Source: Polyangiaceae bacterium
GTDB taxonomy: Bacteria > Myxococcota_A > Polyangia > Polyangiales > Polyangiaceae
Assembly (NCBI GenBank): GCA_020846005.1
Contig: JADLEQ010000081.1
Location: 8,783-72,782, forward strand
Direction of reading: 5' to 3'
DNA length: 64,000 bases
Both the position numbers and the translations under genes were made by a program. Below, piece after piece: positions 7,793-62,559 of the stretch (position 1 is the first letter of the stretch; every line of letters begins with the position of its first letter). The notes beneath the pieces are model-generated. The model was given only the letters and a program-made list of their open reading frames with translations. It was not told the origin of the DNA and ran no database searches.

Positions 7793-9409
7793 ATGGACGC
7801 TCCCCGGCGAGCTCATGGTCGGGTCCTCGTCGCGGCCGCGGCGCTGCTCGGCTGCGCCTGCGGGAGGGGCAGCGCGGGGGACGTCCCGGGGGCGGCCAAA
7901 GTCGCCCCCGAGAACGGCGGCGTCAGGGTCGCTGCCGAGGAGGACTGGAGCCAGGTGCCCGTGCCGGCCGAGGACGGGCCGAAGCTCGCGCCCGTGGTGA
8001 TGAAGGCGCCCATCTACGCGAAGCCGGACCAGCAGACGCAGCCCGTCGGCTACCTGCGCGCCGGCGCTCGCGTCGCGCGATCGGCGGAGCCGGTCTCCCG
8101 GCGGGACTGCCCCGACGGCTGGTACGCCATCCGTCCCTACGGGTTCGTGTGTGTCGGCCCCGAGGCCACGGTCAAGCTCGACCACCCCGTCGCTCGCGCG
8201 ATGACCCGGGAGCCGGATCGGTCGAAGGCGATGCCCTACCCGTACGCCTTCGTCCGCGCGATCGCCCCGAACTACATGCGCGTCCCGACGAAGGCCGAGC
8301 AGTTCCAGTACGAGATGCGCCTCGAGCGGCACCTACGGAACTGGGAGAAGCTCCGCGCGAAGTGGGATGACCTCGACGTGGGCGCGAACGACGTGCCCCT
8401 CGACGAGCGCGGGCACGGCGCCGACCAGATCCCGGAGCACGCCCTCCCGATGGACCAGAGCCAGCGGTTTGGCGGAGACGGCAAGGACGAGATCCCGTGG
8501 TGGCTCGTCGGCGAGCGGCGGATCCCGAACCTGTCGTCGTTCCGGGCGCCGCCGTACGCGGTGATCGCCAACCGGATCAAGCGCCACGCGGGGCTCGCGC
8601 TGATCGGGACCTTCGTCGCGGGGCCCGAGGCGCAGCACCGGCGGTTCGCGATCAGCGCGGACGCCCGGCTCGTGCCCGCCGACAAGCTCAAGGCCGACAG
8701 CGGCTCGCCGTTCCACGGCCACTCGATCCGGGAGTCCGGCCTCCCCGTCGCGTTCGCGCGCAGGGCCGGCGCGACGTGGTGGGAGCTGCGCGAGGGACGC
8801 CTTGCGCGCGGCGAGCGGCTCGGCTGGCGGGAGTTCATCGAGCTCACGGGCACCGTGAAGATGCTCGAGGGCGTCCGCATGGTGGAGGCGCGGAACGGCA
8901 AGTGGCTCCGCTCCGAGGACCTCAAGGTCGCGGCGAAGCCGAGCAAGGTGCCCTCGTGGGCGCGGGGGAAGCGCCGCTGGATCGAGATCGGGATCGTGAG
9001 CCAGACGCTCGTCCTCTGGGAGGGCGACCGCCCCGTGTACGCGACGCTCGTCTCCACCGGCAAGGACGGCCTGCCGGTCGAGGGCAAGAAGGGCTACACG
9101 ACGCCGCTCGGCACGTTCAACATCTACCAGAAGCACGTCACCACCACGATGGACAGCGAGGAGTCGGACCACGAGTTCGAGCTCCGCGACGTGCCGTGGG
9201 TGATGTACTTCAAGGGGGGCTACGCCCTCCACGCGGCGTACTGGCACGACGACTTCGGCCGGGTGCGCTCGCATGGGTGCGTGAACATCGCCCCCATCGA
9301 CGCGCGCGTGATCTTCGAGTTCTCGACGCCCCAGGTGCCCGCGCACTGGCACGCGGCGTACGTCGCCGAGGCGACGGAGCCCGGGACGATCGTCCACATC
9401 CGCCCGTGA
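7793..9409 (+). CDS. L,D-transpeptidase (YkuD domain) lipoprotein
   Basis: Internal ATG of ORF 5606..9409 gives [23 protein letters not shown] (lipobox). The C-terminal YkuD signature is [29 protein letters not shown]...GTFNIYQKH...[27 protein letters not shown]. Confidence 0.8.
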
Positions 9410-9512
9410 GCTGCGGCGCTCCCCAGGCAGCGCGCCTCGCCCCCGCCGAGCGCCGCCGGGGAGGGCCCGTCGCCCGGGCGAGGTCGAATCGCCCCGCGTT
9501 CGTCGCGCGGGC

Positions 9513-10769
9513 GTGCGAGAATCCGCCGCGATGAGTCGTCGCCCTCAGGTGCTCGGAGTCGTCCTCGCAGGGGGCATCGGCCAGCGGCTCTGGCCGCTCA
9601 CGCGCGAACGGGCGAAGCCCGCGGTGCCGTTCGGCGCCGTCTACCGGTTGGTCGACTTCGCGTTGTCCAACCTCGTGAACGGTGGCTGCCTGCGCATCGC
9701 GGTGCTGACGCAGTACAAGAGCCACAGCCTGGATCGCCACCTCGCGCAGAACTGGCGCATGGCCCCGCTGCTCGGCCACTACGTGATGAGCGTTCCCGCC
9801 CAGATGCGAAGCGGCAAGCGCTGGTTCGAGGGCTCGGCGGACGCCATCTTCCAGAACTTGAACCTCATCCGCGACGAGGATCCGGACTACATCTGCGTGT
9901 TCGGCGCCGATCACATCTACCGGATGGACCCGGAGCAGATGCTCGCCGCCCACATCGAGTCCGGCGCGGGGGTCACCGTGGCGGGGATCCGCGTGCCGCG
10001 CGCGGAGGCGAGCCGGTTCGGGATCCTCCAGCCCGGCGAGGGCCGCCTCATCACGGGTTTCCACGAGAAGCCGGCGGAGGCCGCGGGGCTGCCGGACGCT
10101 CCCGACCAGGCGCTCGCGTCCATGGGCAACTACGTCTTCACGACGAGGACGCTCATCGACGCCGTGCGGGCGGACGCCGAGCGCACGGACAGCCAGCACG
10201 ACATGGGCGGGGACGTCGTGACGCGGCTGGTGGAGAAGGGCGACGCAGCCTGGTACGACTTCGCCGAGAACCGCATCCCGGGCGCCACCGAGCGCGACGC
10301 CGGGTACTGGCGGGACGTGGGCACGCTCGACGCCTACTACGAGGCGCAGATGGACCTCATCAGCGTGCACCCCATCTTCAACCTCTACAACCGACAGTGG
10401 CCGATCCACACCGCCACGCGAGATCTGCCGCCGGCGAAGTTCGTCTTCGACGAGGAGGGGCGGCGCGGGTACGCGGTCGACTCCATGGTGGCCGCCGGCG
10501 TGATCGTCTCTGGCGCGACCGTCCGCCGGAGCGTCGTGTCGCCGGGCGTGATCGTGCACGCGAGGGCGGTCGTCGAGGACAGCGTGCTGCTCGACGACGT
10601 CGACGTAGGGGGCGGGGCGGTCGTGCGCCGCGCCATCCTCGACAAGGGCGTGCGCATCCCGCCGGGCGCGCGTATCGGTGTGGACGTCGAGCAGGATCGC
10701 GCGCGCGGCCTCACCGTGAGCGAGGAGGGGGTCGTCGTCGTCGGCAAGGGGGACGAGGTGCGCGCGTGA
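9513..10769 (+). CDS. glgC: Glucose-1-phosphate adenylyltransferase
   Basis: [46 protein letters not shown], followed by a left-handed beta-helix C-terminus. The start may instead be the ATG at 9531 (MSRRPQ). Confidence 0.92.
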
Positions 10770-38048: not shown

Positions 38049-41000
38049 TCAGTCGAGCGCGAAGAGATCCTCGAGGTCCTCTCGGGAGAGCTTCTTCGCG
38101 CCCGAGGCGTCTTCGCCCAGCACGCTCGCGACGAGGTCCTTCTTCTTCTGCTTGAGCTCGAGGATCTTCTCCTCGATCGTCCCCGCCGCGACGAGGCGGT
38201 AGACGGTGACGACCTTCTTCTGGCCGATGCGGTGCGCGCGGTCGCTCGCCTGGTCCTCGACGGCGGGGTTCCACCACGGATCGAAGTGGATCACCGTGTC
38301 GGCCGCGGTGAGGTTCAGGCCGGAGCCGCCGGCCTTCAGGCTGATGAGGAACACCGGGATGGTCGGGTCCGTCTGGAACCGCTCGATGCGCTCGGGGCGA
38401 TCCAAGGTGGAGCCATCCAGGTACTCGTAACGCACGTGGTCCTCGTCGAGCGCGCCCTGGACTAGCTTGAGCATGCTGACGAACTGGCTGAAGACGAGCA
38501 CCTTGTGCCCGCCCTCCTCGACCTCGTTCACGAGCTCACGGAGCGCGGAGAGCTTGCCGCTGTCCTCGGGCCCGAACTCTCGCGGTAGCCCGAGCAGGCG
38601 CGGGTCGCAGGCGGCCTGGCGGAGCTTGGTGAGGCCCGCCAGGATGTGGAGCTGGCTCTTGGCGACGCCCTGGCGCTCGACCTCGCCGAGCACCTGCGCG
38701 CGCACCTCGCGGAGCACCTGCAGGTACACGGCGCGCTGATCCGGTGCCAGGTCGACGATCTTGTCGACCTCGATCTTCGGGGGGAGATCCTTGGCGACCT
38801 CCGTCTTCGTGCGGCGGAGGATGAACGGGTGGATGGTCGCGCGCAGCCGGGCCGCCTGCTTGCTGTCGCCCTGGTCGATGGGGCGCGCGAAGCGCTCCTC
38901 GAACTTGGCGAGCGGCCCGAGGAGGCCGGGGCTCACGAACTCGAAGATGCTCCAGATCTCCGACAGGCGATTCTCAATGGGCGTCCCGGTGAGCGCGAGT
39001 CGACGTCGCGCGACGAGCTGCCGGGCTGCTTGCGCCGTCGCCGAGACGGGGTTCTTGATGTTCTGCGCCTCGTCGAGGATCGCGTAGTCGAGCTCGAGCT
39101 TGCTCAGGAGCTCGATGTCCCGCCGGAGCAGCGCGTAGCTGGTGATCACGACGTCGGCCGTCGTGAGCTCGTCCTTCTGCCCCTTGCGGCCGGCACCGTG
39201 CCAGAGCGCGGTGCTCAGCGTCGGCGCGAAGCGGTGGATCTCTCGGACCCAGTTGCTGACCACGCTCGTTGGCGCGACGATGAGCGCGCGGACGTCCTTC
39301 TGCTCCTGCTTCAGCGAGAGCAGGAGCGCGAGCGTCTGGATCGTCTTGCCGAGCCCCATGTCATCGGCGAGGACGCCGCCTGACGCGATCTCGTCGAGGA
39401 AGCGCAGCCAGGAGAGCCCCTGCTCCTGGTAGGGGCGGAGGGTCGCCTTGAGCGCCCGCGGCTTCTTTGCGGCCTTGATCTCGTCGATGTTCGCGAGCTT
39501 CTCGAACATGGCCTTGGCGCTCGCCGCGACCGTCGCGCTGGTCGCGTGCTGGAGCAGCTCCTGCACCCTCCCCGCCTGCGAGAGCGGGAGCTTGCCCGTC
39601 TTCCCGGCCGCCGCGACGAGCTCGATCTCGCGATCGATCATCGCCTGGACCTTGGTCGAGTCGATCTGGGCGTAGGTGTTGTCGCTGAGGCGCACGAACT
39701 TCTTGCCGTCGCGGAGGCAGCGCTCGAGCTCGTCCCGGTCGACGCCGATGCCGTCTGCCTCGTAGCTGACCTTGACCGCCAGCCAGTCGACGCCGCTCGA
39801 GACCCGGGCGTTCATGATGACGGCGCTCCGCCGGAGGCGGGTGCCGACGAGATCCTCCGGGACGTAGAGCTCCCACGTCCCGGGCAGGGCGCTCACGCCC
39901 TCCGACCAGAAGCGGATCGCCGCCTCCGCCTCGGCGACGAAGAACTCGCCGCTCTCGTCCGGGTCGAGCCCCTGCGCCAGCAGGATGCCGACCGCCTCCT
40001 GCTGGGCGACGATGTCCGTCCGGATGCAGCTCGTCCGCTTCTGCCCCTCTGCCGGCGGTCGGATCAGGACGGGGGGGGAGATGCCATCGGCGCGCACCTC
40101 GACCTCGACGTCACCGTAGCTCGCGCGCAGGGCCACCTCCGCGCGGGTGAGGTCGCCGGAGGCGCGGAGGCGGAAGCGCGGCGGGAGGTCGACCACGTCG
40201 GCGACCTGCGAGAGCTCGGGGAGGTCGGCGCCGACCTCGCCAGCGACCCGCGGGAGGCCCTGCATGATCATGTGGATCAGCTCGGAGGTGGGCTCGGCGA
40301 TGGTGGGGTTCCTGAGCAGGCGGCGGAGCGCCGCAGGGGAGACCCGGTGGTCGAGGGGGCGCGCGATCCCCTCGGTGGTGTCGACGTGCCAGCCGGGCGC
40401 GCCCTCGAACCAGCCGCCGTTCCCGAGCTGGAACCGCCGGCCGTCCGCGCCGCGCTCGAAGGTCGCCTTCACGACGATCGTCTCGCTGCCCACCATCTCG
40501 AGATCGAAGCGAGGGCGGAGGGTCTCGTCGGCGAAGCGGAGCTGCATCAGCGCAGGCTCGAGGAGGACGCGCCGGCCGTTCAGCTTGGGGAACAACTCGG
40601 CCGCGTCCTCGCCGCGGATGTCGACCGCCGGGTGGCGCGGGTTGCCGCTCTCGAAGCGGACCAGCACGCGCAGGGCGTCCCGATCGGGTGTGGGCGCGAG
40701 CGCCTGCCAGCCGAGCGCGGCGCTCGGGAGCATGGGGACGCGGGCGTCGGTGTCGAGCACGGTGACCGTCAATCCGCCCTGGCGGACGTGCATCCTGAAC
40801 TCGAGGTTCAACGCGCGGGCGGCGGCGTCCGGCATCCAGGCGCCGATGCCCGTGGTGCGGAGCAGGGCGTCGGTGGGCGGCGGCGGCGGAAGCCCGACGG
40901 CCACGGTGTGGACCGGCGCGGGGTTGCGCCGGCGGCGCTCCCTGCGGCGGCCGCCCTTCGTGTCGGCGAGGGCCGGCGCCGGGGGCGGGGGCGGGGGCGG

Positions 41001-41378
41001 AGGGGCGTCGCGGCGCGGGTTCGCCGCGCGCGCCTGGTTGCGGACGGTGATGAGCAGCGCGGCGACGTGCTTGCAGTGTTGGTTCGACTTCTGGAATGCC
41101 GGGCACGTGCAGGTCGAGGTGATGCCCTCGCCGCCGAGGTAGATCGCCACGTCGTAGGGGTCCGGGTCGGAGCCCTTCACTCGGCCGTGGGCGGCGCCGT
41201 CGTCGAGTCGCACGTCCTCCACGACGCGCCGCTTCTCGTAGTCGAGGCCGCGGAGGAACGTGCGCGCGCCGAGCAGCCGCCGCAGCCCACGATCGGAGAG
41301 CGTGGAGAGGGCGTCGGCGAGCGACGAGGCGGCGGCGGGATCTGCGGGGGAAGGGGAGGGAGAGTCGTTGGAGAGCAT
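38049..41378 (-). CDS. SNF2-family DNA-dependent ATPase with an N-terminal SWIM zinc finger
   Basis: Internal ATG gives MLSNDSPSP. The SWIM finger is CTCPAFQKSNQHCKH. The SNF2_N region has LRPYQEQGLSWLRFL, LADDMGLGKTIQTLALL and LDEAQNIKN. The helicase C region has VLVFSQFVSML, SLKAGGSGLNLTAADTVIHFDPWWNPAVEDQASDRAHRIGQ. Confidence 0.9.
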   Translation of the reverse strand: MLSNDSPSPSPADPAAASSLADALSTLSDRGLRRLLGARTFLRGLDYEKRRVVEDVRLDDGAAHGRVKGSDPDPYDVAIYLGGEGITSTCTCPAFQKSNQHCKHVAALLITVRNQARAANPRRDAPPPPPPPPAPALADTKGGRRRERRRRNPAPVHTVAVGLPPPPPTDALLRTTGIGAWMPDAAARALNLEFRMHVRQGGLTVTVLDTDARVPMLPSAALGWQALAPTPDRDALRVLVRFESGNPRHPAVDIRGEDAAELFPKLNGRRVLLEPALMQLRFADETLRPRFDLEMVGSETIVVKATFERGADGRRFQLGNGGWFEGAPGWHVDTTEGIARPLDHRVSPAALRRLLRNPTIAEPTSELIHMIMQGLPRVAGEVGADLPELSQVADVVDLPPRFRLRASGDLTRAEVALRASYGDVEVEVRADGISPPVLIRPPAEGQKRTSCIRTDIVAQQEAVGILLAQGLDPDESGEFFVAEAEAAIRFWSEGVSALPGTWELYVPEDLVGTRLRRSAVIMNARVSSGVDWLAVKVSYEADGIGVDRDELERCLRDGKKFVRLSDNTYAQIDSTKVQAMIDREIELVAAAGKTGKLPLSQAGRVQELLQHATSATVAASAKAMFEKLANIDEIKAAKKPRALKATLRPYQEQGLSWLRFLDEIASGGVLADDMGLGKTIQTLALLLSLKQEQKDVRALIVAPTSVVSNWVREIHRFAPTLSTALWHGAGRKGQKDELTTADVVITSYALLRRDIELLSKLELDYAILDEAQNIKNPVSATAQAARQLVARRRLALTGTPIENRLSEIWSIFEFVSPGLLGPLAKFEERFARPIDQGDSKQAARLRATIHPFILRRTKTEVAKDLPPKIEVDKIVDLAPDQRAVYLQVLREVRAQVLGEVERQGVAKSQLHILAGLTKLRQAACDPRLLGLPREFGPEDSGKLSALRELVNEVEEGGHKVLVFSQFVSMLKLVQGALDEDHVRYEYLDGSTLDRPERIERFQTDPTIPVFLISLKAGGSGLNLTAADTVIHFDPWWNPAVEDQASDRAHRIGQKKVVTVYRLVAAGTIEEKILELKQKKKDLVASVLGEDASGAKKLSREDLEDLFALD

Positions 41379-44698: not shown

Positions 44699-44830
44699 GC
44701 TACCACGCCGCGTTGCACCGGGAGCAGGGCGTCGCCGCCCGAGGCTGCGGCCAGCGGCGGCGGACTGCGCGGCCGCCGCAGTGCGGCCGTGTTGCCGTGT
44801 CGCCGTGTGGCCGCGTCGCTGGGCAGCTGG

Positions 44831-45055
44831 GTCGCCCTGTCGCCGGGCGCCCTGTCGCCGGGTCGCGCTGTCGCCGGGCTCACCGTCGCCGGGTCGCGCT
44901 GTCGCCGGGCTCACCGTCGCCGGGTCGCGCTGTCGCCGGGCTCACCGTCGCCGGGTCGCGCTGTCGCCGGGTGGCAGTGTCGCCGGGTGGCACTGTCGCC
45001 GGGTGGCACTGTCGCCGGGGGCACTGTCGCCGGGCGGCAGTGTCGCCGGGTCGCC
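44831..45055. repeat. Array of about 14 GTCGCCGGG cores at alternating 15/16-bp spacing
   Basis: Read directly. A 31-bp unit TCGCGCTGTCGCCGGGCTCACCGTCGCCGGG occurs 3 times, followed by 16-bp units TGGCACTGTCGCCGGG about 5 times. The array lies between the Cys-rich lipoprotein gene start and the 3' end of tRNA-Leu. Confidence 0.9.
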
Positions 45056-45099
45056 CCGTGGCCGAGGTCACGACCACCCGGCGCTGCGCCGCGGTAGGG

Positions 45100-45182
45100 T
45101 ACCGAAGGTGGGACTCGAACCCACACGTCCTTGCGGACAGCGGATTTTGAATCCGCCGCGTCTGCCGTTCCGCCACTTCGGC
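45100..45182 (-). tRNA. tRNA-Leu (anticodon CAA)
   Basis: The reverse strand reads GCCGAAGTGGCGGAACGGCAGACGCGGCGGATTCAAAATCCGCTGTCCGCAAGGACGTGTGGGTTCGAGTCCCACCTTCGGTA. It has a 7-bp acceptor stem (G1-U72 wobble), anticodon loop TTCAAAA, the long variable arm typical of Leu, and a GGTTCGAGTCC T-arm. CCA is not encoded (followed by CCC). Confidence 0.9.
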
Positions 45183-45258: not shown

Positions 45259-46065
45259 TCACGAGCGGACGCGCGCCGTCGCGATCACGGTGTCGAGCAC
45301 GTAGAGCTCCCGGCGGCGGTCGCCGGCCGACAGGTACGGCGCGCGGGTGAACGGCCCCGGCTCCAGCCCGAGCGGCTCGAGCACCCCCTCGACGAGCGCC
45401 GTCGCGCCGATCTCCCACGTCGGCCCGTCGATCGGCAGGCGCTCGAGCGGGTCGTGCGTTCTGCCCCCGTCGTACCAGTGGGGCCGGTACGGCAGCGGGA
45501 CGGATACCACCAGGGAGCCTCCGGGGGCGAGGCCGTGGCGCGCGCGCTCAAGCAGCGTCCGTGGTCGGGCGGTGCGGTCGATCACGTTGAGGAGCGAGAT
45601 GACGTCGTACGGCGAGCCCGGCACGCCGTCGCTCGCGACGCCGGGCGCGTGCGTCACCCACCCGCGCCGCGCGAGGCGAAGTCGCATCGATCGCGCGGCC
45701 TCGGTGACCACCACCTCGTCGAAGCCCGGCGCCAGGTGGGCGGTCACCCCGCCGTCCCCGGCGCCGATGTCGAGGAGCCGCCCCCGGCGGGCGTCCCCGA
45801 GCAGGCGCTGCCACTGCTCGGTTCCCAGCAGGAAGAGCGGGTACGTGCCGAGCAGGCCGTTGACCTCGAAGTCGGAGAGCCAGGGGCGGAGGAGCGCGTG
45901 GAGCGCGCCGCGCAGGCGCCCCGCGCGTGTCCGCCCGAGCGTGGCGAGGAACACCTCGGCGGCGGGGTCCGGCTCGAGCTCCACGAACCGAGGCCGCAGC
46001 GCCGGCGGCAGCCGCTCGCGCCTGCAGGAATAGACGAGCGGCGGGCGCTTCGGGGGCGCGGACAT
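45259..46065 (-). CDS. METTL9/DREV-like class I SAM-dependent methyltransferase
   Basis: Internal ATG of ORF 45259..47256 (MSAPPKRPPLVYS). FEVNGLLGTYPLFLLGTEQWQRLL, RLLDIGAGDGGVT (motif I), YDVISLLNVIDRTARPRTLL and PYLSAGDRRRELYVLD resemble animal METTL9 along the full length (my recollection of that family). Confidence 0.8.
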   Translation of the reverse strand: MSAPPKRPPLVYSCRRERLPPALRPRFVELEPDPAAEVFLATLGRTRAGRLRGALHALLRPWLSDFEVNGLLGTYPLFLLGTEQWQRLLGDARRGRLLDIGAGDGGVTAHLAPGFDEVVVTEAARSMRLRLARRGWVTHAPGVASDGVPGSPYDVISLLNVIDRTARPRTLLERARHGLAPGGSLVVSVPLPYRPHWYDGGRTHDPLERLPIDGPTWEIGATALVEGVLEPLGLEPGPFTRAPYLSAGDRRRELYVLDTVIATARVRS

Positions 46066-46076
46066 CGGGAGGCCGC

Positions 46077-47672
46077 TCAGCCGCGGGGGCGCCGCTCCCG
46101 CAGCTTCCACGCGAGGTGGGTCGCGACGGTCATGATCGAGAGCTGCGGGTTCACGCCGAGGCTCGTCGGCAAGATGCTCCCGTCGACCACGAAGAGATCC
46201 TTCACGTCCCACGCCGCGCCGTCCGGGCCGACCACGGAGGCCTTCGGGTCCACGCCCATCCGGCAGGTGCCCAGCGGGTGCTGGGAGCCGCTCTCCAGAT
46301 CCCGGCCGCGGACGCGCTCGAGGTCCAGCGTCCGCATCCGATCCGCGTCCACGCCGCCGAGCCCGAGCACGGGGAGGAAGACCTCCTCTGCACCCGCGGC
46401 GAAGAAGATCTCCGCCATGCGCCGCATCAGCACGGGCACCGCGGCCTTGTCGCGGGGCGCCATCCGGTACGTCATCGCGCGCCGGCCGAACACCTCGAAC
46501 ACGTGCCCGCCGCCCTGGTCGTGCACCATGCCCCCGAAGATCGCCAGGTGCGGGATGTCGCGCGCCCGGGCCACGTGCTCCCGCCCGACCCCGGGCATGG
46601 TCGCGGCCAGCACCCCGGGAGGCACGAACAGCCCGGTGAGCGTCACGTTGTCGGCCTCGTAGGCCTCGCTGTACGCGCTCTGGAGCGCGCCCTGCCAGCC
46701 CCGGATCGGGTCGCGGAAGCGCGCCATCACGCGGAACGCGGGGTGGACCGTCATGTTGCGACCCACCTGACCCGAGCGGCGGCCGATCCCCGAGCGCCCG
46801 AGCAAGACGGGCGAGCCGTAGGCGCCGCCGCTGACGACCGTGCGTCGCGCCCGCACGCGGAAGACACCGCCCGGCGGCCGCTCGGGGCCGCGCAGCAGGT
46901 GGCCCCAGCACCCGTCCACGCGTGCCCCGCGGACCACGAGCGACTCGACGCGGCAGTCGGACAGCACCTGTGCCCCCGCGGCGAGCGCGCGCGGGAGATA
47001 CGTCTGATCGACAGAGAGCTTCGCCTGCTCCGGGCAACCGAAATTGCAGCGGCCGCAGCCGCGACAATCGACCGTGTTTCGCCGGATGGGGTGCACCTCG
47101 ACGCCGAGGCGGCGCGCACCATCGACGAACCGCGTCGTCGAGCGCGAGCGCATCGACTCCGGCACCTCCTCCACGTGCACGGCGCGCTCCACATCCAGGT
47201 GGGCGGCATCGAGGCGCGCCTCCGTGTAGTCGTGGAGGCCCATCTCGCCGGACCACTCGCGGAGCACGCGGCCGGGGATGCGGAAGCAGACACCGCCCGT
47301 GAGCACGCTCGAGCCGCCCACCGCGCGCCCCATCATCACGTTGATCGCCGGGGTGTCACCCAGCGGGAGCGCGAACGCGAGCCCGGCGTCGATCCACAGC
47401 CGGCGCAGGCTCTCGCTCGGCCGGAGCTGCGCTTGCTCGGCCGGCGGTACGTGCTCGCCCTCCTCGACCACCACCACGCGCTCGCCGGCCTCGGCGAGGT
47501 GACACGCCACGACCGCGCCGCCGGCGCCCGAGCCGATCACCAGGGTGTCGGCCTCGAGCTCGAGATCGCCGCTCACGTCGCGGCCGTGGACGATGCCCGA
47601 GTGCAGCTCCGCCACGCGCGCCTTGCGCGCCGCCGGCTCGAGCCCCCAGAGCTCTGCCTCGGGCGCGCTCAC
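46077..47672 (-). CDS. GMC-family FAD-dependent oxidoreductase
   Basis: GTG at 47672 overlaps the upstream stop (GTGA). The FAD-binding motif is DTLVIGSGAGGAVVACHLAEAGERVVVVEEG. The C-terminal GMC signature is HPLGTCRMG...VVDGSILPTSLGVNPQLSIMTVA. Confidence 0.85.
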   Translation of the reverse strand: MSAPEAELWGLEPAARKARVAELHSGIVHGRDVSGDLELEADTLVIGSGAGGAVVACHLAEAGERVVVVEEGEHVPPAEQAQLRPSESLRRLWIDAGLAFALPLGDTPAINVMMGRAVGGSSVLTGGVCFRIPGRVLREWSGEMGLHDYTEARLDAAHLDVERAVHVEEVPESMRSRSTTRFVDGARRLGVEVHPIRRNTVDCRGCGRCNFGCPEQAKLSVDQTYLPRALAAGAQVLSDCRVESLVVRGARVDGCWGHLLRGPERPPGGVFRVRARRTVVSGGAYGSPVLLGRSGIGRRSGQVGRNMTVHPAFRVMARFRDPIRGWQGALQSAYSEAYEADNVTLTGLFVPPGVLAATMPGVGREHVARARDIPHLAIFGGMVHDQGGGHVFEVFGRRAMTYRMAPRDKAAVPVLMRRMAEIFFAAGAEEVFLPVLGLGGVDADRMRTLDLERVRGRDLESGSQHPLGTCRMGVDPKASVVGPDGAAWDVKDLFVVDGSILPTSLGVNPQLSIMTVATHLAWKLRERRPRG

Positions 47673-48292
47673 GCGACCCCCTCGGCGCCCGCGGCGGGGC
47701 CGAGCGCCGCGGGGCTGGGGAGGCCCAGACACTCGGCGTCGAACCCGACCTCGGCGGCGGCGTCCGGGTGTTCGTAGTAGAGGATGCAGAGCAGCGCCTT
47801 CACCGCGAGTACGGGGCCGCCGAGCGCGCTCGCCTCCAACGCCGCCAGCGCCCGGACTCGCTCACGAAAGGGGAGCGACGCGAGGGAGCCGAGGCGCCCG
47901 ACGAACAGCGGCGCGATCCAGACGATGACGAGCGTCGCGGCGGCCATCGTCCAGCGCATCTGCGCGCCGGCGTGCGCGAGCACGTCCTCGACCTCGGCCA
48001 CCACCCAGTCGACGCGCGCCGCTGGAGGCGGCCCCGCCGCCGTGGCGAAGATGGCCTCGGTGAGCGAGCGGAGCCGCGCCATGATCCGCGGAGACACCAC
48101 GGGGGAGCCGTCCGCGCGGCGGAGCGGGGGGCGTGGCTCGGGGGCGGCGCGAGCGAGCGCTCTCGGGGCGGTCACGGCGCGCCATGGTCCCGCGAACGCG
48201 CCGAACGCACAAGCGGGTTCCATCGAGCGGCGGGTGACGGCGCTCGCTGGCCGGGTGCCCGGCGTGAGCCCTCGCCGACCGATGCCGGCCAC
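47669..48292 (-). CDS. Small accessory protein of the GMC oxidoreductase (hypothetical)
   Basis: Translationally coupled to the GMC gene. The convincing part starts at the internal ATG at 48082 (MARLRSLTEAIFATAAG...TMAAATLVIVWIAPLFVG, one TM). The first 70 codons have lower GC3, so the start is uncertain. Confidence 0.5.
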   Translation of the reverse strand: MAGIGRRGLTPGTRPASAVTRRSMEPACAFGAFAGPWRAVTAPRALARAAPEPRPPLRRADGSPVVSPRIMARLRSLTEAIFATAAGPPPAARVDWVVAEVEDVLAHAGAQMRWTMAAATLVIVWIAPLFVGRLGSLASLPFRERVRALAALEASALGGPVLAVKALLCILYYEHPDAAAEVGFDAECLGLPSPAALGPAAGAEGVA

Positions 48293-48317: not shown

Positions 48318-49460
48318 TCACGTGCGCTCGCGTCCGATCCGGAGAAAGCTCGCGAGATCTGGGTTGCTGGCGTCGAGCTTCCAGATCCATGCGTCGAGGT
48401 AGTAGTGCGTGATCTGCGGCACGCTGAGGAGCGCGACCCAGGCGGAGAGCGCGGCGCCCTGCACGTTGGGCGTGGCGACGGAGAACAGGGAGGGCAAGTA
48501 GACGCGCCACACGACGCCGTCCCACAGCGACTCTTCCACGATGGCGACGGCGAGCAGCACCGCGTAGAACGCGAGCCAGCGTCGGCGGGCGAAGATGGCG
48601 CGCACGAGCGGTGGCGTCACCTCGGGGTGCGCATCGAAGCGATGCCGGCTCCGGTGCCACACGATGGCGAGGAACTGCGGGCCGTGGAACAGGTTGAGGA
48701 ACGCCGCGGACACGAACGGGTGGGTCGCGAGGCTGATCCCCACGACCCAGCTCACCCAGCTGCAGACCATCCACAGGCACTTGCCGACGTTGAGGCGCTC
48801 GCCCTGCGCGACGAGCTGACCCTGACGGAAGACCCAGGCCGCGGCGATGCCCGCCATCCCGAGCTGGAGGTCCCGGTGGAACGCCGGATCGATGCGGAAG
48901 ATGAACGACTCGCCAGCGTTGAACCAGTCGAACTGGCGCTGCGGCGAGGCGTGCCAGAGCAGGACGGAGCCGAGCGCGCTCGCCCAGAGCGCCCACCGAT
49001 CCAGGTAGTAGTCGAACCGCCGGTGCTCGCCAGCGCGCGCCTTGTAGAGCGCGATGAAGCCCCACTGCTGCTGGACGAAGTGGAAGATCGCGACGTACGC
49101 GAGCAGGCTCCAGAACAGGGAGGCCGAGTGGGCGTGGATGCGATACGCCACGAGGAAGCTCACGATGGGTGTGAGCAGGAGGAGGGCGCGGCGGCGCCTC
49201 ATCACCTCCCGATCGAGGTAGGTGAGGTAGATCGTCGCCCAGACGTGCGTCACGTCGAAGGCGACGACCACGAGCAGGAACGCCCAGAGCGGGAGGGCGC
49301 CCTTCGCGGAGTCGTGCAGCGTGAGCAGGGACGCGAGCGCCGCTGCGAGTGGGAGCACGAGCTGCAGCACGTCGAACCGAGCGGACACGAGCCAGCGGTC
49401 GTCGGCGGCGGGCAGCGCCGGGGGCGCGCGGGCGGCGTCGTCGTGCGTGGCGGTCGTCAT
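48318..49460 (-). CDS. Polytopic membrane protein with multiple conserved-looking His residues (possible membrane metalloenzyme)
   Basis: 380 aa with about 9-10 TM segments. The His-bearing motifs are DVTHVW, YRIHAHS, AIFHFVQQQWG, LLWH, NLFHGPQFLAIVWHRSRHRF and ITHYYLDAWIWK. It is the first gene of the minus-strand operon that ends with the methyltransferase. Confidence 0.7.
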   Translation of the reverse strand: MTTATHDDAARAPPALPAADDRWLVSARFDVLQLVLPLAAALASLLTLHDSAKGALPLWAFLLVVVAFDVTHVWATIYLTYLDREVMRRRRALLLLTPIVSFLVAYRIHAHSASLFWSLLAYVAIFHFVQQQWGFIALYKARAGEHRRFDYYLDRWALWASALGSVLLWHASPQRQFDWFNAGESFIFRIDPAFHRDLQLGMAGIAAAWVFRQGQLVAQGERLNVGKCLWMVCSWVSWVVGISLATHPFVSAAFLNLFHGPQFLAIVWHRSRHRFDAHPEVTPPLVRAIFARRRWLAFYAVLLAVAIVEESLWDGVVWRVYLPSLFSVATPNVQGAALSAWVALLSVPQITHYYLDAWIWKLDASNPDLASFLRIGRERT

Positions 49461-57927: not shown

Positions 57928-58515
57928 ATGGAATTCGAAGTCGCCCCGCTCCCCTACGCCAAGAACGCCCTCGAGCCGTTCATGAAGGCGGAGACCCTCG
58001 AGTTCCACTTCGAGAAGCACCACAAGGGCTACATGACGAACCTGAAGGGCCTGCTCGAGGGGAAGCCCGAGGCGTCGAGGCCCCTGGTCGAGGTCATCCG
58101 CGGGTCCTCGGGCGGGGTGTTCAACAACGCCGCGCAGGTCTGGAACCACACCTTCTTCTGGGACGGCCTCCGGCCCGGCGGGGGCGGGGAACCGGCGGGC
58201 GAGGTGGGCGACCTCCTGCGTCGGGACTTCGGCTCGTACGGCGCGTTCCGCGAGGCGTTCGTCAAGGCGGGCCTCGGCCGGTTCGGCTCGGGCTACGCGT
58301 GGCTCGTCCTCTCCGAGGGGAAGGCGAAGCTCATCGACACCCCGAACGCCGAGACGCCGCTCACCACCTCCGACGTGCCGCTCTTCACCGTCGACGTGTG
58401 GGAGCACGCCTACTACCTCGACCACCGGAACCTGCGGAAGGCGTTCCTCGAGACGGTGCTCGACCACCTCGTGAACTGGGAGTTCGTCGCGAAGAACCTG
58501 AGGTCCGCCGGCTGA
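57928..58515 (+). CDS. sodB: Fe/Mn superoxide dismutase (Fe-type features)
   Basis: GGAGG lies 6 nt upstream of the ATG. MEFEVAPLPYAKNALEPFMKAETLEFHFEKHHKGY, AQVWNHTFFW and DVWEHAYYLDHRN. Confidence 0.93.
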   Translation: MEFEVAPLPYAKNALEPFMKAETLEFHFEKHHKGYMTNLKGLLEGKPEASRPLVEVIRGSSGGVFNNAAQVWNHTFFWDGLRPGGGGEPAGEVGDLLRRDFGSYGAFREAFVKAGLGRFGSGYAWLVLSEGKAKLIDTPNAETPLTTSDVPLFTVDVWEHAYYLDHRNLRKAFLETVLDHLVNWEFVAKNLRSAG

Positions 58516-62029: not shown

Positions 62030-62094
62030 GCGCCGCGGGCGGCGCCGGTCCCGCGGGGCGTGCGCTCCGCCGACCGGCGCCTCGGGCCCGGCGC

Positions 62095-62559
62095 CTACTC
62101 CGGCCGGACGGGCAGGATCGGCGCCCAACGCAGGCGATCGAGCAGGTCGTCGTCGACCAGCATGCCACGATCGCTGAAGTAGAGCGCGTTGTCCGCGGCT
62201 GCCTCGCGGAGCTCCGCGACGAAGAGGATGCCTTGGCCCTGCTCGTTGAACCCGAGCTGGACGATGGCGTTCTCGAGCCACTTGCCGCCGCCCTCGAACT
62301 CGAGCGTCTTCGGCAACGTGTAGTAGCCCTCCGCGGGCAGGCGCTTCAGCGTCTTCGCCCAGCTCGGCGAGCGGAGCGGCGTGGTCGGCTCGCCCCAGAA
62401 CCAGCGGTTCTTGCGGTTGGAGCCCGGCCGCACCACGAACTTGAGGCCGCCGTTGGACGGCTGACCGATGTAGACGAGCACCCCGGCGGGGAACGTATCC
62501 TCGTGACCGGGATAGGGCTGGGTGGTGCGATAGAGACCAGGGTCGGGCAGATCGAGCAT
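62095..62559 (-). CDS. Hypothetical soluble protein
   Basis: Internal ATG (MLDLPDPGLYRTTQPYPGHEDTFPAGVLVYIGQPSNGGLKFVVRPGSNRKNRWFWGE...). The composition is balanced and I recognise no family. Confidence 0.55.
   Translation of the reverse strand: MLDLPDPGLYRTTQPYPGHEDTFPAGVLVYIGQPSNGGLKFVVRPGSNRKNRWFWGEPTTPLRSPSWAKTLKRLPAEGYYTLPKTLEFEGGGKWLENAIVQLGFNEQGQGILFVAELREAAADNALYFSDRGMLVDDDLLDRLRWAPILPVRPE

Follow-up and report, generated by a model that had tools for sequence, protein, structure and literature searches.

Protein histidine methylation has, to our knowledge, been worked out almost wholly in animals, in which the enzyme METTL9 methylates histidines in metal-binding proteins. A 64,000-nucleotide stretch of a Polyangiaceae bacterium genome (the window; G+C ~74%) contains a gene whose product resembles this enzyme, which raises the question of whether a bacterium encodes a genuine METTL9 and, if so, whether the same chemistry would be directed at the same targets. 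METTL9 is described only in eukaryotes in the literature searched, with no mention of a bacterial member: a 2025 study of METTL9 orthologues sampled eukaryotic supergroups only (PMC12269839), the words bacteria, prokaryote and archaea are all absent from a 2026 METTL9 review (PMC13027442), and pairing METTL9 or DREV with myxobacterial terms returned no paper naming METTL9 or DREV among the best 15 literature matches.

The minus-strand open reading frame proposed in an earlier sequence-only reading of the window translates into 268 amino acids followed by a stop codon (Table 1), with an ATG start codon placed 11 nt past the stop of an upstream GMC oxidoreductase gene and the N-terminal sequence MSAPPKRPPLVYSCRRERL. 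The GC3 of this gene (0.94) is similar to that of its neighbours.

Table 1 Coordinates of the methyltransferase gene, its neighbours in the window and DUF2891 genes at related loci.
Feature	Coordinates	Strand	Remarks
METTL9-like (DREV family) SAM-dependent methyltransferase	45259..46065	-	268 aa + stop codon
GMC-family FAD oxidoreductase	46077..47672	-	Pfam GMC_oxred_N + GMC_oxred_C; longest ORF to 47732
Small hydrophobic protein hyp207, partner of GMC oxidoreductase	47669..48175	-	conserved part ~140-168 aa; no Pfam match
380-aa membrane protein, uncharacterised family	48318..49460	-	five invariant histidines; outside conserved unit
tRNA-Leu(CAA)	45098..45182	-	76 nt downstream of methyltransferase stop codon
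Tandem array	44786..45069		16-nt unit, ~17 copies
SNF2-family helicase	38049..41378	-	large gene, downstream
Fe/Mn superoxide dismutase	57928..58506	+	
Conserved 146-aa gene	62089..62511	-	uncharacterised function
DUF2891 gene, locus L001	8783-9796		
DUF2891 gene, locus L003	8795-9802		
DUF2891 gene, locus L056	2511-3569		
DUF2891 genes, loci L061, L068, L072	~8863-9808		

The METTL9 homology proposed in the sequence-only reading was borne out. The Pfam DREV profile (PF05219, curated cut-off 26 bits) matches residues 12–261 of the protein with an E-value of 2e-37 and 129.2 bits, covering nearly the whole profile (positions 2–260 of 265), while the best generic methyltransferase model in Pfam reaches 48 bits and is confined to residues 86–193. 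No specific NCBIfam model was found for the protein, local matches being far below threshold; the top match, to the OvoA C-terminal 4-mercaptohistidine N1-methyltransferase domain, scores 36 bits against a cut-off of 170 (E-value 5e-9) over 40 residues only. A phmmer search of PDB sequences gave human METTL9 as the best match (7Y9C, 9VPQ and 8GZE; E-value ~5e-35) with an alignment running the length of the protein (query residues 11–261), followed by the METTL9 of Ostreococcus tauri (8BVI, E-value 1e-25). The four sequence blocks from which METTL9 had originally been recognised all occur in the protein, and the human counterparts given for them are right, except that the first, which in human METTL9 reads SINGLLGRGSMF, was off by two residues.

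The predicted fold agrees with this assignment. An AlphaFold2 model built with 24 bacterial homologues as input (pLDDT 91.7, pTM 0.90) retrieved METTL9 structures as all of its top 10 Foldseek matches (TM 0.86–0.89, rmsd 2.0–3.1 Å, 31–34% identity), with human METTL9 at TM 0.87–0.89 and rmsd 2.0–2.4 Å over ~265 columns (33–34% identity) and 8BVI at TM 0.86. The seven-β-strand fold and the METTL9-specific N-terminal helices, extended β6 and β7 strands and L15 loop are all present in the predicted model. The closest folds after METTL9 are OvoM and OvsM (TM ~0.55, 16–18% identity), which, with the OvoA C-terminal domain, are class I SAM enzymes that methylate the imidazole pi nitrogen; all of these lack the METTL9 extensions. 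By sequence, profile and predicted fold, the window protein is a genuine full-length member of the METTL9/DREV family.

Residue conservation was scored in human METTL9 numbering across the window protein and 117 further bacterial homologues (118 in total), with residue roles taken from mutagenesis and crystal structures of human METTL9 (PMC10308197) and from the orthologue study (PMC12269839). The SAM ligands D151, G153, E174, N210 and Y295 correspond to D99 and G101 (motif I), E122 (Post I), N160 and Y244 of the window protein and are kept in 115–118 of the 118 homologues (D151, G153 and Y295 in all, E174 in 116 and N210 in 115). The catalytic D213–R214 pair (D163–R164) is invariant, and the Y306 wall (Y255) is found in 111/118. 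The pocket for the histidine two residues upstream of the target, His(i-2), which comprises Y295, M126, C297 and L308 in the human enzyme and Y244, L77, S246 and L257 in the window protein, is also conserved: L308 is kept in 117/118, the M126 position is Leu or Met across the bacterial clade, and the C297 position is Ser in 110/118, matching the Ostreococcus enzyme. N118 and D300, matched by N69 and D249, are kept in 111/118 and 112/118, respectively. Judging from the alignment, the SAM site, the catalytic Asp–Arg pair and both histidine pockets are intact in the window protein and throughout the bacterial clade. Compared with human and mouse METTL9 (protein-L-histidine N-pros-methyltransferase; PDB 7Y9C, 7YF2-4, 8GZE/F), the window protein has the same core and METTL9-specific extensions, with identical SAM ligands and D213–R214, a conserved Y306 wall and His(i-2) pocket, and D300 retained. 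It differs in being bacterial and operon-borne, in lacking the N-terminal leader of ~50 residues found in animal METTL9, and in its residues at positions C297, R114, T115, R123, G124, V241, H245, E249 and W255.

These replacements are characteristic of the bacterial clade as a whole. R114 is replaced by Asp in 114/118 homologues, R123 by Thr or Met in 108/118, G124 by Tyr in 112/118 and E249 by Tyr, Phe or His, with further changes at T115 (Phe/Tyr), V241 (Pro/Ala/Val), H245 (Arg) and W255 (Thr); in the window protein, the clade-specific residues are D65, F66, T74, Y75, P190 and Y198, of which D65, T74, Y75 and Y198 stand in place of human R114, R123, G124 and E249, respectively. The clamp that in METTL9 holds the middle residue and the backbone (R114–N118–R123, with D300) is thus not matched, N118 and D300 being kept and R114 and R123 replaced. 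Nor are the L15-loop contacts E249, Y247 (Phe or His in the bacterial proteins), H245 and W255 kept, whereas the length of the loop and its Pro/Gly framework are. In human METTL9, the small middle residue sits in a pocket made by R114, N118 and R123, and peptide binding is lost in the R123A and E249A mutants (PMC10308197); R123 and E249 belong to a set of six residues at which alanine substitution has this effect, and neither is conserved in the bacterial clade, while Arg-Gly at 123–124 and E249 are retained in most eukaryotic representatives. METTL9 orthologues keep the HxH requirement while their tolerance for flanks and middle residue shifts, and the Ostreococcus tauri enzyme, of the same family and fold as the window protein, is a eukaryotic orthologue with narrower HxH specificity (PMC12269839). 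The Ostreococcus enzyme keeps R123 and G124 (as R93 and G94; PMC12269839), whereas in the bacterial clade both of these, and E249 as well, are replaced; the R114 position varies in both, being Leu in Ostreococcus and Asp in the window protein. The bacterial proteins are, on their residue patterns, a distinct METTL9 subfamily whose chemistry is very probably that of METTL9 and whose target motif probably differs from that of the animal enzyme: since the readers of the middle residue and flanks (R114, R123, G124 and E249) are replaced, and the replacements are conserved within the clade, a different target motif and substrate set are to be expected. Plain equivalence to the animal enzyme does not survive the clade-wide loss of R114, R123 and E249 from the peptide groove.

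On the best reading, the gene encodes a cytosolic SAM-dependent METTL9/DREV methyltransferase comprising the catalytic core only. By analogy with the human crystal structures, SAM would be held by motif I, Post I, N160 and Y244. In human METTL9, a hydrogen bond from D213 to N3 of the target imidazole directs methylation to N1 (PMC10308197, PMC12269839). The invariant D163 would act in the same way, leaving N1 (pi) to attack the SAM methyl group, while R164 and Y255 would enclose the substrate imidazole ring and a second histidine, two residues upstream of the target, would occupy the conserved Y244/L77/S246/L257 pocket. From the intact D163 pocket and second-His pocket, we infer that the most likely activity is methylation of protein histidines at N-pi within an HxH-like context. 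We consider it probable, with moderate confidence, that the enzyme is an N-pi methyltransferase of protein histidines whose target specificity has been altered.

The genomic context was examined for indications of partners. On the minus strand of the window, genes for the 380-aa membrane protein, hyp207, the GMC oxidoreductase and the methyltransferase precede tRNA-Leu(CAA), with the hyp207 stop codon overlapping the GMC start. The methyltransferase had been described in the sequence-only reading as the last gene of an operon with redox and membrane proteins. This holds in part: the hyp207–GMC–methyltransferase order recurs in related genomes, with the GMC gene upstream on the same strand in 17/80 loci and hyp207 accompanying it in 15 of these 17, but elsewhere a PhoX-like or divergent superoxide dismutase gene lies upstream. 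The gene called nearest upstream is PhoX-like in 19 of the 80 loci, a divergent Fe/Mn superoxide dismutase in 16 and GMC in 9, with others in the remainder; a superoxide dismutase gene occurs somewhere in 39, and a 2-hydroxyacid dehydrogenase gene is commonly found downstream of the methyltransferase (18–22 loci). tRNA-Leu(CAA) is downstream in 12 of 25 loci checked. A universal operon partner was rejected, as the immediate neighbours vary and none is constant across the 80 loci. The locus is stable on the chromosome and its synteny is conserved, in keeping with vertical inheritance; no fixed functional partner is indicated.

The GMC/methyltransferase junction is bridged by a 205-nt contig (45937–46141) of RNA-labelled origin, and contigs from RNA-labelled runs also cover the 3′ end of the methyltransferase gene; being few, short, free of strand information and open to DNA carry-over, they hint at expression and co-transcription. 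We infer that the GMC and methyltransferase genes are probably co-transcribed. A promoter and terminator scan between the genes gave nothing useful. Metagenomes from wastewater and activated sludge commonly contain this organism.

Several further features of the window were observed. Many related genomes have the superoxide dismutase gene and the conserved 146-aa gene (Table 1) within ~2 kb of the methyltransferase; here the two are 12–16 kb away, indicating local rearrangement in this genome. A tandem array, with higher-order periods of 31 and 47 nt and matches of up to 90%, separates tRNA-Leu(CAA) from the upstream end of a gene for a Cys-rich secreted protein. The SNF2-family helicase gene was recognised by eye in its translation, from the helicase motifs and what looks like a Cys/His-rich N-terminal region.

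In the sequence-only reading it was suggested, as speculation, that a His-rich membrane protein with an HAH triplet (YRIHAHS) provides a substrate in cis. The triplet is present, but the 380-aa membrane protein is only mildly enriched in histidine (15 residues, 3.9%). In an alignment of 108 sequences, consisting of this protein and 107 homologues from Myxococcota and Planctomycetota, the first His of the triplet is kept in 94/108 and the second in 57/108, and the middle residue is Leu in 35, Ser in 17 and Ala in 16. Human METTL9 needs a small middle residue in HxH, and Leu is not expected to be accepted. The membrane protein is encoded in 0/80 related loci, and in the whole window HxH with a small middle residue occurs three times, about the chance number estimated from composition. 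Absence from the 80 loci, poor HAH conservation and a chance number of triplets leave the substrate in cis unsupported, and the membrane protein, whose commonest middle residue is Leu and whose family also occurs in Planctomycetota, was rejected as a candidate. As an observation in its own right, H72, H127, H170, H259 and H352 of this protein are invariant in the 108 sequences, which suggests a membrane metalloenzyme; it has no Pfam or NCBIfam match.

No HxH-rich proteins were found in the window or among conserved neighbours (~690 predicted neighbour proteins examined), and one tandem HxHxH was found across the related loci (in L021). A DUF2891 gene, missing from this window, is found downstream of the methyltransferase in 9 loci; at the loci given in Table 1, where the GMC pair is present too, it follows the methyltransferase directly. 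Its motif, YDWHSxVH[GS]HW / HSAVH[GS]HW, is an HxH with a small middle residue, and DUF2891 is the only recurrent neighbour family with such a motif. A DUF2891 protein of solved structure (8ieu) has the motif too, which makes it look like a feature of the family and not evidence of targeting; on this ground, and given the absence of the gene from the window, DUF2891 was also rejected as the substrate.

The distribution of the subfamily is sharply delimited. A word-indexed protein search gave 316 matches, the best 120 of which share 46–72% identity with the window protein, the named ones being Polyangiaceae metagenome-assembled genomes (MAGs). A scan of one genome per species, using a peptide pattern specific to the bacterial signature that could miss other lineages, detected relatives in 86 species-level genomes. 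All 80 among the matches listed are Myxococcota MAGs (titled Polyangiaceae, Sandaracinaceae, Polyangiales, Polyangia, Myxococcales, ‘delta proteobacterium’ and similar, the families named being Polyangiaceae and Sandaracinaceae), and their relatives at the syntenic locus share 38–54% identity with the window protein. Prokaryotic members were taken in the sequence-only reading to be rare and uncharacterised; they are in fact common within Myxococcota, but seemingly confined to that phylum and, in the literature searched, without a described bacterial member. An exhaustive profile search of 1.84 billion representatives returned 598 clusters at E ≤1e-30 and 1,428 at E ≤1e-10, and several hundred metagenomic proteins belong to the bacterial group. 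With relatives in 86 species-level genomes, a syntenic locus, a GC3 of 0.94 and contigs from RNA-labelled runs, the methyltransferase gene is a real resident gene under selection. Within the myxobacterial class Polyangia, the family has long been established on the chromosome. The window protein belongs to a large METTL9-like subfamily that is restricted to Polyangia and, as far as was found, undescribed.

Bacterial-type sequences make up 81 of the 141 family members kept for comparison, with a diversity about equal to that of the eukaryotic ones. Mean identity is 39% among eukaryote-type sequences, 37% among bacterial-type ones and 33% across the two types, and the similar within-type values make the bacterial group look about as old as the eukaryotic group. 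In a rough neighbour-joining (NJ) tree of the best 150 profile matches and vertebrate sequences, unrooted for want of an alignable outgroup, the eukaryote-type sequences form one clade (with vertebrates, Telonema, Rhodelphis and a foraminifer) and the bacterial-type sequences fall outside it, nested in no eukaryotic lineage; bootstrap support for the split is 40% with all taxa and 66% after removal of six unstable sequences. Two sequences with intermediate signature residues (the P0138 cluster and L081, or P0141) branch beside the eukaryotic clade. One is shared with a Euglena mutabilis transcriptome and the other is on a eukaryotic-looking 2.35-Mb contig with sparse genes; transfer from a bacterium to a protist, or contamination, may be the cause. 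A divergent METTL9-like subgroup (P0179, P0209, P0223, P0225 and others) was also noted; the P0209 gene (4007–4792 of a 6465-nt contig) adjoins a serine recombinase gene and a REP_ORF2-G2P replication gene, which suggests carriage on a mobile element. IMG/VR viral contigs contained no full-length relative, only partial matches to generic methyltransferases, and a viral vector for gene transfer was rejected on this basis.

Other explanations of the gene differ in how far they fit these data. A METTL9 fold acting on a small molecule or short peptide natural product with an imidazole (candidates being a thiol derived from histidine, a dipeptide and a peptide of ribosomal origin) in place of folded proteins is the most serious of them, and is suggested by the clade-wide replacement of the peptide-groove residues R123 and E249, essential in the human enzyme, and of R114. 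The next structural neighbours, OvoM and OvsM, N-pi-methylate free 5-thio- or 5-selenohistidine; the weak local NCBIfam match is to the related OvoA domain; and an oxidoreductase gene adjoins the methyltransferase in the window. Myxobacteria are, moreover, rich in specialised metabolism, and CARNMT1 methylates both carnosine and proteins. However, the long L15 loop and extra β-strands of the protein-substrate groove are retained at full length in the predicted model, at TM 0.87–0.89 to human METTL9, and both histidine pockets are conserved. No ovothiol-type sulfoxide synthase is encoded nearby, and neither sulfoxide synthase, NRPS nor RiPP genes flank the methyltransferase in the window or the 80 loci, where neighbours vary. 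We regard a small-molecule or peptide imidazole substrate as rather unlikely.

A generic class I SAM methyltransferase, UbiG/UbiE-like or another O- or C-methylase resembling METTL9 in its Rossmann core only, could be read from the names of some metagenome homologues (‘2-polyprenyl-3-methyl-5-hydroxy-6-metoxy-1,4-benzoquinol methylase’ or ‘SAM-dependent methyltransferase’) and from the additional Pfam matches to Methyltransf_23, _12 and _11. The generic models, however, reach at most 48 bits over residues 86–193 against 129 for DREV over residues 12–261, the alignment includes the family-specific N- and C-terminal elements together with D213, R214, Y295, D300 and Y306, and a wide gap in structural similarity separates METTL9 from all other methyltransferases, so that this very improbable reading is effectively refuted. 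It is equally hard to credit that the gene was recently acquired by horizontal transfer from a eukaryote, animal or other, or that the assembly is contaminated with eukaryotic DNA, as the earlier description of the family only in eukaryotes and the 33–34% full-length identity to human METTL9 might suggest. The GC3 of the gene equals that of its flanking genes, it sits among bacterial genes and a tRNA, 11 nt past the preceding cistron, and its relatives are syntenic in the 80 listed Myxococcota genomes; these are of bacterial type with their own signature residues and lie outside the eukaryotic clade, and no full-length viral relative was found in IMG/VR.

The preferred reading, a bacterial protein-histidine N-pi methyltransferase, leaves the deeper origin of the family to be considered. 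Tentatively, eukaryotic METTL9 may have an ancient sister lineage in Polyangia, inherited vertically there and performing bacterial protein-histidine N-pi methylation with its own target motif, a scenario that we find possible without expecting it to hold. If it is true, the family would either have been passed to the eukaryotic stem by a donor resembling a myxobacterium, a route already proposed for sterol synthesis, or have moved in the opposite direction very early; histidine methylation would be a further trait common to Myxococcota and eukaryotes, and this enzyme would be the first bacterial protein-histidine methyltransferase.

The sequence finding alone reveals neither substrate nor phenotype. 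What it provides is a large, conserved and taxonomically sharp bacterial clade in which the catalytic machinery is kept and the specificity groove is rebuilt, adding a data point to the debate on genes shared by Myxococcota and eukaryotes. The bacterial enzyme is a simple soluble model for motif reading by METTL9, and its presence opens up the testable possibility that methylation serves some bacteria as a means of tuning His-rich proteins, metal-binding or other.
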